Positions 1 to 3,000 of a DNA stretch of 12,369 nucleotides are shown here, piece by piece. Within the stretch, counting starts at the first letter, position 1, and each line of letters starts with the position of its first letter. Origin of the DNA: a virus. Taxonomy: Duplodnaviria > Heunggongvirae > Uroviricota > Caudoviricetes. The position numbers are program-made. The stretch is from the IMG/VR virus record IMGVR_UViG_3300037678_000008, positions 1 through 12,369 of that record. One strand, 5' to 3'.

Positions 1-3000
1 CACCTGTTGACGCGTTTACAGGTTTGCTTGTATTTTTAATCGCAATAAGTAATCGCTCTTTAACAAACTGAACCGCGTGACAGGTAAGCCGCAGTACTCC
101 TGGCAAAACGAAATAGCACCCGATGGGATCGAGGTAAGCGCCGAGTCCGTATGCGTACGGTAAGCGTAGAGGACAACACCGCGACGAGCTGATAAGTCAC
201 GCAAATTGAAACGCCCCGATGATGGGGCGTCTGAACCAATGGAGGAAAACATCATGCACAAGTAAAACGCTCAGACCGCAGCAGCCGAACCACCAAAGAG
301 AACTGAATGAGGAAACGGTGTGAAAACATATAAACCGCTCAAAGGTGAATGCCCTGCTTGCCAAGCACAACTTCAGGCACCAAAGCCTGAACGATACCAA
401 ATCAACGAATGTTATGAGCACTGCCCTGAATGTGGTGCTTTCCTGTACGCCATTGCAACGTACTGGCGTGTCCGCTTCAACCTTGTGGTACCTCGTACGC
501 ACAATACCAACTGAATCATCTATGTAATTGCTGTGTGTAGCCTTTGCCCGCCTCAAGTGACGGGCTTTTTTATGTCTGAAAGCGCACTCGCAACAGCGCG
601 CTCCCCGATATGAAAAAAGGAATACAACCGATGAAACCTGAACACATCCATCGACTGACGGGGCGCGATGTTCTCCGTTATCGCCGTAAAAACTTCGATT
701 TGATGACCGGTCTGGCCGTTGCCACTGCGCTCGGTCTGATCATCACTTTCATTCTCCTTGTAGCGAGGACCACAGTATGAGTTTAGAAACCAGTCTCGAA
801 CTTAATAATCAACTTCTGGCACAACATAATGCGCTGCTTGAACGTCTTATCCGCACAATGGCATCAGGTATTGTTATGCATCCTGACACGATTTCACGAG
901 TGCAGGAATGTCGGGATACAGCAACTGAAGCTGAAAACATGTCAGCGGCAATGACACTGGATGATCTGGAGTTCAGCGACGTTATCGCACTGGCTGGTTT
1001 CTACCCGGTAGCCACCCCTATCACAGAAGACATGCTGCAACGTGCTGTTGCCTACCGTGATGCTGAAGGCGATAAACGAGTAGTTCAGATTGATGCTCTC
1101 GACAGCGCATTACAGGGCGTCAAACGAGCCAGGGCGCTGCTTAAACCTGCTCTCCTGGACCTGTCCCGTAACATTCTTAAGTTCTGGGACGACCTGCCAA
1201 CCATCGGCGAGCGACGTGCTTTTGCCGAGCAGCTACTTGATGCACCTGCAGATGGGCGTGATGAAGTTAAGCCGAAAAAGGCCAGTAACAAAGATGGAGA
1301 ACGCACGGGGCCGTTTTACGTCAAAAATGTATCCGGCACAGCAGCCAGTGAACTCCACACCTTACGCAAGTTGAACGAGATGCTGAAAAAAGGCCATATC
1401 GAGATCAACCGTGTTGAGTACCTTCAGCTGCAGGAAGAATTTGCACGCAGAGACGCAGCAAATTCCAGCCAGAATAATAACGCCAAAGATGACCATACAA
1501 TTGATTTCGCGGCACTACGCAAACAAGCTGAAGGGTTGATCCTCCAGTTAGCAAAAGGGGGTTACCGGGCAGAAGCTATTGCAATTCTGGAAAAACAGGG
1601 AGCCAGGAAACTTGGTGAAGTAACAGATGAAAATCTCGCTGAAGTAATCACCCTGGCGGAAAAAGCACTGGAGGGTTAATCATGCCGGAAGCCTGGAAGG
1701 ATATTTCAGGCTTTGAAGGAATTTACCAGATTTCAGACGCTGGCAACCTGAGAAGCCTCGACAGAACTGTATTAAACAAAGGTTCTGGCTGCACCTATCC
1801 CATTAAAGGTAAGTCACTAAAACCACGCTATGACGCAGACGGATATCTCATCACCGACTTATGGAAAGCGGGTAAAAAGGTAACCGTCAAAATACACCGT
1901 CTCGTTGCCGCTGCATTTATTCCCGGATCTGCCCCTGAAGTTGACCACATTAACGGTCGTCGAGATGACAACCGGGCGGTAAATCTTCGCTGGGCCTCTC
2001 TTTCACAAAACAGGGCTAACTCTCACACCAGAAAAAATAAATCTGGAGTGGTTGGCGTTCGGTTCAGCGAAGGTAAGAAAAACCCGTGGCAGGCCTACGG
2101 ACGATTAAACGGCAAATTCAAATCTCTCGGTCATTTCCCCACCAAACAACTCGCAGCAGCTGCGCGGCGAAAACACATTCAGGAGATCATGAATGCCTGA
2201 TGTTCATGCACGATTATCACCATCATCTGCACATCGTTGGCTAAGGTGTGCGGGTAGTCTGGCGCTGGAGGCCACACAACCGGATAAAGAAACAACTTTT
2301 GCAATCGAGGGCACTGCAGCGCACGCGCTTGCTGAAAAAGTTCTACGAAACAGGCAAAGCCACCCGGAACACTACGCCGGATGCAATGTTTCTATGTTTC
2401 TCGGCTCATACCCCCTTCGCGAAAATCCTGATGATACATCTGGCCCACAGGTGGATGATGAAATGGTCGAAGCCGTTGGCCGGTATGTTGATACGGTCTG
2501 GACTCTTGCACAGAATAATGAACTATTGGTTGAACAACGTGTTGATTTCTCACATATAACGGGGGTGGAAGAATCTTTCGGAACTGCCGACGGCATAATC
2601 ATCGCTGGTAACGAATTACAAATCCACGACCTGAAATATGGCAAAGGCGTCCGCATTGATGCAGAACAAAATGAGCAACTACAACTGTATGCTCTGGGTG
2701 CTCTCGAACAATTCAGCATGCTGTATGACTTTGAGACTGTAAGATTATTTATTCACCAGCCAAGGCTCAACCACGTTTCAGAATGGTCTTTAACCGTACA
2801 GGAGCTTCAGTCTTTCGGTGAACGGGCACTGGAGGCCGCAACCAGTGCGATCCTTGTTCTCAATATTGCTGAATGCGAAGGCATTGAGACACTACCGCTG
2901 GAAAACTTCATACCTGGAGAAAAACAGTGCCGCTTCTGTAAAGCAAAAGCTATTTGCACTGCCCAGAAAATGCAGCATTTACAAACAGCGGCCAGCGATT

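Follow-up and report, generated by a model that had tools for sequence, protein, structure and literature searches.

The homing endonuclease I-HmuI, encoded within an intron of the Bacillus phage SPO1 (structure 1U3E), joins an N-terminal NUMOD4 sheet domain to an HNH domain with a D-H...N...N motif and ends in helices and a helix-turn-helix; it is reportedly a nickase, as Shen and colleagues are said to have described in 2004. The HNH/HNN-AP2 endonucleases form a recognised phage-borne class whose listed carriers include the Xanthomonas phages Xp10, OP1 and Xop411 and the coliphages T5, T1 and RB-type (PMC2248197, which cites Magnani 2004 and Wessler 2005). Here we analyze a stretch of 12,369 nucleotides of tailed-phage DNA (Caudoviricetes; IMG/VR virus record IMGVR_UViG_3300037678_000008, positions 1 to 12,369; herein referred to as the window) in which the open reading frame (ORF) at 1682-2200 is very probably a free-standing HNH-AP2 homing endonuclease gene of the I-HmuI-like NUMOD4/HNH_3 class, spread by homing as a 511-bp gene together with 66 adjacent nucleotides. 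Its sheet domain, HNH domain and D-H...N...N motif match those of I-HmuI, from which it differs in being free-standing and in ending in a predicted AP2 domain. With the phage HNH/HNN-AP2 endonucleases it shares the combination of HNH nuclease and AP2, a free-standing position between genes and a variable presence. The gene and its domains are laid out as follows.

1682..2200, + strand: free-standing homing endonuclease gene (ATG start, 172 amino acids)
1688-1864, + strand: NUMOD4 domain (amino acids 3-61; Pfam E 5.2e-15)
1889-2014, + strand: HNH_3 catalytic domain (amino acids 70-111; Pfam E 4.5e-9)
2042-2191, + strand: predicted AP2 DNA-binding domain (amino acids ~121-170; profile and structure-model evidence)

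Both N-terminal domains score well above their Pfam gathering cut-offs (NUMOD4 55.8 bits against 23.4, HNH_3 36.3 against 24.8), and PHROG families of HNH endonucleases match the ORF with E 1e-34. Residues D88, H89, N97, N101 and N110 are invariant in an alignment of 38 homologues; in the family profile, which retrieves I-HmuI (1U3E) with E 1.2e-33 over positions 4-124, the catalytic residues align with the VDH...NLRW...N motif of that enzyme. The AlphaFold model (predicted local distance difference test, pLDDT, 88.7) points to the same protein, for Foldseek returns 1u3e with E 3.7e-8, probability 1.00 and 39% identity over 116 columns. The C-terminus of the model consists of strands 126-128, 136-142 and 145-152 followed by a helix at 155-170, and this three-stranded sheet on a helix resembles the plant AP2/ERF domains of AtERF1 (1GCC) and WRI1 (7WQ5), with root-mean-square deviations (rmsd) of 1.6 A over 51 columns for AtERF1 (template modeling score 0.67 on the target) and 1.9 A for WRI1, the comparisons spanning 51-57 columns. 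Plant AP2 proteins are also matched by the family profile at positions 109-164 (WRI1 E 2.7e-9, TEM1 E 8e-6), and a precomputed PF00847 match is present in about 10 full-length homologues of the endonuclease. The phage modules nevertheless differ from the plant domains, with 24-30% identity, an NP[YW]xAY signature in strand 2, and single sequences that fall below the Pfam AP2 threshold.

The window is itself an Escherichia coli prophage. The chromosome of yak strain HY220605 matches it at 99.9% over the full length, and partial matches at 96-97% occur in hundreds of E. coli chromosomes and in the induced phages vB_EcoM-606R2/611R5/689R2. The insertion lies between two genes:

777..1679, + strand: 300-amino-acid gene, phrog_6784 (PHROG match), the left flank of the insertion site
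1682..2192, + strand: 511-bp insertion relative to empty-site genomes, its ends ambiguous by a repeated ATGCC (1682-1686, 2193-2197)
2193..3494, + strand: DUF2800 / PD-(D/E)XK exonuclease gene, the invaded gene (Pfam DUF2800 E 1.4e-109, PDDEXK_1 E 1.9e-9; phrog_69 exonuclease)

The first-pass annotation of this DNA had given the endonuclease a gap of 3 nucleotides after the 300-amino-acid gene and an overlap of 8 nucleotides with the DUF2800 gene; the overlap is as described (2193-2200, with the DUF2800 start at 2193), and the gap is one of 2 nucleotides (TC at 1680-1681, the upstream gene ending at 1679). Of 5426 complete E. coli genomes, only 8 contain endonuclease DNA; it is 99.6-100% identical and always adjoins DUF2800. 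When a 1401-bp probe across the insertion site was searched against the same 5426 genomes, the junction was recovered in 152 genomes, eight of them at full length; among the matches listed, empty sites measure 889-890 bp, or 511 bp less, and the insertion therefore corresponds to 1682-2192 (one exceptional empty site among these matches measures 898 bp, with a separate 8-bp insertion). The 151 genomes matching the probe comprise 8 filled sites, 3 chimeric sites and about 140 with the canonical empty junction sequence, TTAATCATGCCAGACGTTCATGCACAACTTTCTCCATCATCAGCGCATCGATGGATGCGCTGCCCAGGAAGT, and the 300-amino-acid gene is identical or nearly so in E. coli genomes with an empty site. Relatives, which it had been proposed to check for the endonuclease, mostly lack it: of 151 E. 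coli genomes with the junction about 143 are without it, as are phage vB_EcoM-606R2, in which the 300-amino-acid and DUF2800 genes are adjacent at an empty junction, and all 7 loci found through the DUF2800 protein in five other genera (Pluralibacter, Pectobacterium, Trabulsiella, Limnobaculum and Symbiopectobacterium), which keep a layout of stop codon, 2 or 3 nucleotides and ATG. Orthologues of 98%, 87%, 85% and 70% protein identity occupy the same site with the same 8-nucleotide overlap in other prophages (the first three labeled Enterobacter asburiae, Serratia and Salmonella enterica, respectively), and the exact endonuclease protein is common in draft assemblies (742 indexed blocks of the sequence collection contain it), always at this site where inspected. 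The HNH-AP2 genes of Xanthomonas phages have no conserved flanks and their transmission was judged sequence-independent (PMC2248197); here, in contrast, different genera have the gene at one and the same site, next to a recognizable co-conversion tract.

This tract, at the 5' end of the invaded gene, is the strongest mark of how the gene arrived:

2193..2258, + strand: co-conversion tract, candidate recognition and cleavage site (17 substitutions, at 2198-2255, relative to the canonical E. coli empty allele)

Once the 511 bp are taken out, the alignment has 17 substitutions in 58 nucleotides of the tract against 0-1 per 35 nucleotides in the flanks; only three of the 17 change an amino acid (Q7R, M17L and P20A), the rest being synonymous. 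Two prophage loci with a 98%-identical endonuclease (L010 and L012) show the following DNA identities to the window:

Upstream 300-amino-acid gene: 69-74%
Endonuclease gene: 97.1-97.3%
66-nucleotide patch: 97.0%
Rest of DUF2800: about 80%

Otherwise diverged prophages hence have a 577-bp block (1682-2258) in common, bounded on the left by the start codon and on the right between 2255 and 2270, of which the right-hand 66 nucleotides are foreign in the E. coli lineage. On sequence grounds we read this block as a lateral transfer with co-conversion, the pattern left by intron-less homing (PMC2988022). It would be very surprising if the gene were instead ancestral at the site and precisely deleted in most lineages, such that the polymorphism records loss. 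Short repeats at both ends of the 511-bp segment (ATGCC, and ATCATG) could mediate a precise deletion, and strain 89-3156 resembles an endonuclease-carrying lineage after gene loss; however, a gene and patch 97% identical between prophages with flanks of 69-80% require recent transfer of the block, the loci in more distant genera are empty without exception, and divergence between E. coli prophages has not erased the canonical empty sequence (L004, L005). A block so conserved between diverged prophages rules out a gene that was simply ancestral and repeatedly lost.

Free-standing endonucleases are known to cut away from their own gene and to co-convert flanking markers (PMC2988022). SegF, SegG and MobE of phage T4 are alike in lying between conserved genes, in having a target in the neighboring gene, in co-converting flanking markers (PMC2988022, PMC2790892), and in that carrier and target alleles are told apart by sequence differences. 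They differ in that the Seg proteins are GIY-YIG enzymes and the C-terminal region of MobE is different, whereas the window encodes an HNH-AP2 enzyme; their cleavage sites lie hundreds of base pairs away, whereas the tract in the window ends 66 nucleotides from the gene; and they reside in a T-even phage rather than in a temperate enterobacterial prophage. These comparisons lend good support to the earlier proposal that the gene is a mobile, free-standing HNH homing endonuclease inserted between conserved genes, and the 577-bp transferred block strengthens it.

The insertion also rearranges the translation signals of the invaded gene:

1670..1675, + strand: GGAGGG, putative Shine-Dalgarno sequence (sequence and alignment of empty and filled sites)
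2181..2185, + strand: AGGAG, candidate replacement ribosome-binding site of DUF2800 (inside the 3' end of the endonuclease gene, 7 nucleotides before the DUF2800 ATG)

GGAGGG precedes the DUF2800 ATG in empty genomes and the endonuclease ATG in the window, and CAGGAG(A/G)T is kept in seven orthologous loci (L007, L008 and L010-L014), with GAGGAGGT in an eighth (L009). The endonuclease gene would thus take over the ribosome-binding site of DUF2800, while its own AGGAG probably keeps DUF2800 translated. Promoter and terminator scans gave no promoter-like or terminator-like site flanking the endonuclease gene on the + strand, and so there is no evidence for its autonomous transcription; it appears to ride the early operon while preserving expression of the gene it invaded. 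Pfam matches place an Enc34/gp2.5-type single-stranded DNA-binding protein (SSB) gene 3' of DUF2800, and a family-A polymerase gene further on. Translational coupling inside this early replication-recombination operon could be taken to mean that the HNH protein serves the phage, either in association with packaging, like HK97 gp74, or as an accessory to the DUF2800/SSB/polymerase recombination module. We give this next to no credence, for about 95% of otherwise near-identical prophages lack the gene, the terminase genes are not adjacent, and the NUMOD4, HNH_3 and AP2 architecture, with I-HmuI as the best structural match, is of the homing type. One nucleotide in the left flank, a G at 1658, was considered as an endonuclease-linked marker and rejected: it is specific to the window and synonymous (an Ala codon), and all other carrier and empty loci inspected, including the 99.9%-match record, have T.

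Several observations concern the same module in other prophages. Between its SSB and family-A polymerase genes, the prophage locus whose endonuclease carries the Salmonella enterica label (L008) has a second NUMOD4/HNH_3 gene of 160 amino acids (6460-6942 of that locus), which overlaps the start of the polymerase gene; this prophage module has therefore received a second invasion of like kind, at another site. Two empty-site prophages, in E. coli RMDEC465 (L006) and Z1322HEC0009 (L005), have a DUF2800 gene annotated as frameshifted, and that of RMDEC465 contains, about 180 nucleotides in, an 8-bp tandem duplication (ATGTTTCT).

We hypothesize that homing proceeds during co-infection or recombination between related prophages, when the enzyme would recognize an endonuclease-less allele at the 5' end of DUF2800. 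Target recognition would be the task of the N-terminal sheet domain and the AP2 domain, and the HNH center (D88/H89, N101 and N110) would nick or cut at the target. Cleavage itself, its position and the choice between a nick and a double-strand break are properties that we infer from sequence; a single-strand nick, turned into a break by replication, is the likelier chemistry because the endonuclease is 39% identical to the nickase I-HmuI. Recombinational repair from the carrier genome would then copy the 511-bp gene and the adjacent 66 nucleotides of DUF2800 into the recipient, and the copied nucleotides, with their mostly synonymous changes, would render the new allele uncuttable and hence presumably immune. 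Little harm should come to the host phage, in which the ribosome-binding site of DUF2800 is taken over, a new AGGAG is supplied and the reading frames overlap by 8 nucleotides.

The chimeric empty sites, found in three genomes (89-3156, B771 and F1022), bear on where the enzyme might act. They have the empty type at the 6 proximal markers and the carrier type at the distal 11, with a common point of change:

2220..2227, + strand: breakpoint interval of the chimeric alleles, candidate nick or break position (common to the three genomes, in two prophage backgrounds)

These alleles may have arisen by recombination, by loss of the gene, or by short-tract repair that brought in the distal markers without the gene, and the breakpoint interval may be linked to cleavage. 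A speculative extension, to which we lend some but limited credence, is abortive homing, in which the enzyme would nick near 2220-2227 and short-patch repair from a carrier would convert the downstream markers, leaving immune, endonuclease-free alleles. If true, this reading would pinpoint the nick site and would record resistance to a homing endonuclease evolving in wild prophages.

Several observations weigh against spread by homing, or against parts of the assignment. The left junction is without co-converted markers, which points either to a donor not yet sampled or to a left crossover through very short homology. For the E. coli prophage lineage the data demonstrate no more than a single transfer, after which the gene could have reached its present distribution by vertical descent, because its eight E. 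coli copies are 99.6-100% identical and a single immunity region is common to the eight carrier loci inspected. The nucleotides linked to the homing endonuclease gene are not universal, in that the Salmonella locus L008 keeps TGGATG and an empty Symbiopectobacterium site has TGGCTA. Additionally, Pfam AP2 (PF00847) gave no match to the endonuclease even at E<=10, either with the full-length protein or with the isolated C-terminal piece; the profile search that had been proposed for three domains thus bore out NUMOD4 and HNH_3 directly, above their cut-offs, and AP2 by family profile and structure only. A tblastn search of isolated phage genomes returned thousands of members of the endonuclease family, none above 60% identity, and no sequenced free phage can hence be named as the donor.

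The same distribution could be explained by an endonuclease that was once mobile and is now inactive or decaying, kept by linkage in one prophage sublineage and cutting nothing today. Such near-identical copies in 8 of about 151 junction genomes, the single immunity region of the inspected carriers, and a rare ant module (described below) that also occurs in 7 of the 8 carrier genomes all fit vertical descent, and decay after fixation is expected of homing endonuclease genes (cycle model cited in PMC2248197). We nevertheless consider present-day inactivity unlikely. The ORF is intact at 172 amino acids in every copy inspected and remains intact in orthologues down to 60% identity, and the catalytic residues D88, H89, N101 and N110 are invariant; moreover, protein identity exceeds DNA identity in diverged orthologues (87% vs 78% in L007, 70% vs 65% in L009), which implies purifying selection. 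Elements maintain activity before they approach fixation, and this one is still far from it.

A second AP2-like segment lies some 3 kb downstream in the window, in a protein that resembles the members of a phage network in which DNA-interactive proteins with Bro-N, AntA and KilA-N domains reportedly swap domains, as Iyer and colleagues are said to have described in 2002:

5113..5874, + strand: AntA-like antirepressor gene (AntA at amino acids 23-90, Pfam E 9.8e-25, 87.4 bits; anti-repressor PHROGs)
5479..5613, + strand: AP2-like module of the AntA-like protein (amino acids ~124-168; profile evidence)

The ORF starts at GTG 5110 (254 amino acids) in an ORF listing and at ATG 5113 in the 253-amino-acid call on CM132922.1 (locus L017), the record 99.9% identical to the window. 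The first-pass annotation had proposed that the C-terminal segment of the endonuclease recurs in this protein, and alignment of the two segments upholds the similarity. A single BLASTP comparison aligns amino acids 131-164 of each protein with 35% identity and E 0.002; hhalign with the two families gives a probability of 94.8% and E 5.4e-8 over amino acids 132-167 of both; and, within the HNH-endonuclease family phrog_99, amino acids 124-165 of the AntA-like protein match the same columns as the endonuclease C-terminus (E 1.3e-4).

The identity of the module as AP2-like, which we accept on profile evidence, follows from wider searches. Exhaustive phmmer with amino acids 105-180 found 69 proteins, many with 3-6 tandem matches; the multi-repeat proteins are matched with library-wide E values of 5e-13 to 1e-9, and Pfam AP2 recognizes 4 of 10 scanned above its cut-off. 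The same repeat units are matched by the Ant module, the AP2 segment of the endonuclease and a hand-entered AtERF1 sequence. A 49-sequence profile of the module finds WRI1 (E 4.2e-10), AtERF1 (E 4e-6) and ERF096 (E 5e-6), and 9 of its 49 members match Pfam AP2 and no other family. Pfam AP2 gave no match to the AntA-like protein itself even at E<=10, including its isolated C-terminal piece, and a profile of the full-length Ant alignment had no matches among PDB sequences, where the module-only profile did. The AlphaFold model is of low confidence (pLDDT 63 overall, 54-66 at the module and 28-34 at amino acids 111-130); it places only two strands, the second and third of the AP2 sheet, and a helix at 136-141, 146-152 and 155-168, and its Foldseek matches to WRI1 and TEM1 are not significant. 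Among the proteins found are also tandem arrays of 3-7 AP2-like repeats, 225-642 amino acids long (P0175-P0187), one of which (P0175) ends in a DnaJ domain.

The further suggestion that the module was shuffled within one phage did not hold. The two modules are only about 33-35% identical, they lack nucleotide similarity, and ant sits in an independent, variable cassette; a recent DNA-level duplication was likewise rejected, blastn-short of the two AP2-coding segments yielding chance 7-12-mers only. Because identity is about one-third, DNA similarity is absent and the cassette is separate, the sharing of the module is old and at the level of families. Indeed, a 17-sequence profile of Ant-type modules scores the endonuclease clade of the window at 31-42 bits over the whole module and distant HNH-AP2 proteins at 12-25 bits, and the NP[YW]xAY signature is common to the Ant-type module and this clade; that the closest AP2 subtype occurs in the window's own endonuclease clade favors an old relationship with the Ant module. 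On this evidence the Ant module is best regarded as a distant homologue within the domain-swapping Bro/Ant network, not as a recent copy.

As in that network, the AntA-like protein carries interchangeable AntA or BRO-N heads on a constant middle and C-terminal part; the middle module, which is without a Pfam label in these proteins, is here identified as AP2-like. Links of HNH_3 to AP2 and to Bro-network segments have been noted before (PMC10111431). Comparison of window 5110-5874 with eight related proteins (P0122, P0139, P0153 and P0162-P0166) reveals a three-part mosaic of an AntA or BRO-N head, a near-invariant AP2-like middle and one of two unrelated tail versions. One of them (P0122) combines a BRO-N head with 99% identity to the window protein over amino acids 110-254. 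The middle module is nearly invariant in proteins labeled E. coli, Salmonella, Klebsiella and Serratia.

A cassette at about 4059-5989 contains ant; it resembles the immI region of P1/P7 and is present in some otherwise identical prophages and absent from others. Its first kilobase or so (4059-5109) is without a convincing ORF, and scans of the cassette returned four features:

4630-4659: promoter-like TTGACA-18-CATACT (promoter scan)
4745-4830: sRNA-Xcc1 match (Rfam, 60 bits)
4975-5058: C4 antisense RNA match, RF01695, just upstream of ant (Rfam, 70.6 bits)
5886-5905: terminator-like hairpin (terminator scan)

The locus hence has both an AntA domain and an upstream C4-type RNA, as in P1 immI-type control, and antirepressor activity is predicted. 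The ant module is present in 14 genomes. A functional association between endonuclease and ant was considered and set aside in favor of linkage in one prophage sublineage, because some carriers are without the cassette (L016, L020 and L021) and the cassette occurs in non-carriers. The AP2-type module in AntA- and BRO-N-headed antirepressors suggests direct DNA binding, and one possibility, by analogy, is that such proteins are sequence-specific DNA-binding silencers rather than classical protein-binding antirepressors, for which AP2-containing CasPR anti-CRISPR repressors provide a comparison (bioRxiv 10.64898/2026.02.23.707548). This matters for the interpretation of prophage regulatory cassettes and extends the known domain-swapping network.

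The endonuclease and the Ant AP2 module both belong to known kinds, and the locus is a textbook case whose main gain is one of annotation: a protein labeled 'NUMOD4 domain-containing protein' in RefSeq is here assigned as an HNH-AP2 homing endonuclease, its mobile unit delimited to 577 bp and its candidate target to 66 nucleotides, in a widespread prophage family of E. coli, Salmonella and Enterobacter. As a natural instance of intron-less homing among temperate phages the locus is, moreover, unusually clean: the edges of the transferred block are sharp, the co-converted changes mostly synonymous, the ribosome-binding sites exchanged, and some alleles without the endonuclease partly converted.

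A few results concern the rest of the window. An NCBIfam search with the endonuclease and the AntA-like protein had no matches, and no tRNA was found within the window. Two convergent genes for Arc-like ribbon-helix-helix proteins, at 10199-10375 (+ strand) and 10344-10673 (- strand), overlap at their 3' ends by about 30 nucleotides; their products are 58% identical over 52 amino acids with the first 14 residues identical (MSKRDDPQLRVRIP), and no DNA-level inverted repeat was detected in the pair (10199-10673). Directly after the DNA polymerase gene, 8743-9504 encodes a protein with a TIR domain of the CAP12/Pycsar-effector type (PF10137, E 2.9e-31), which is possibly defense or abortive-infection cargo.

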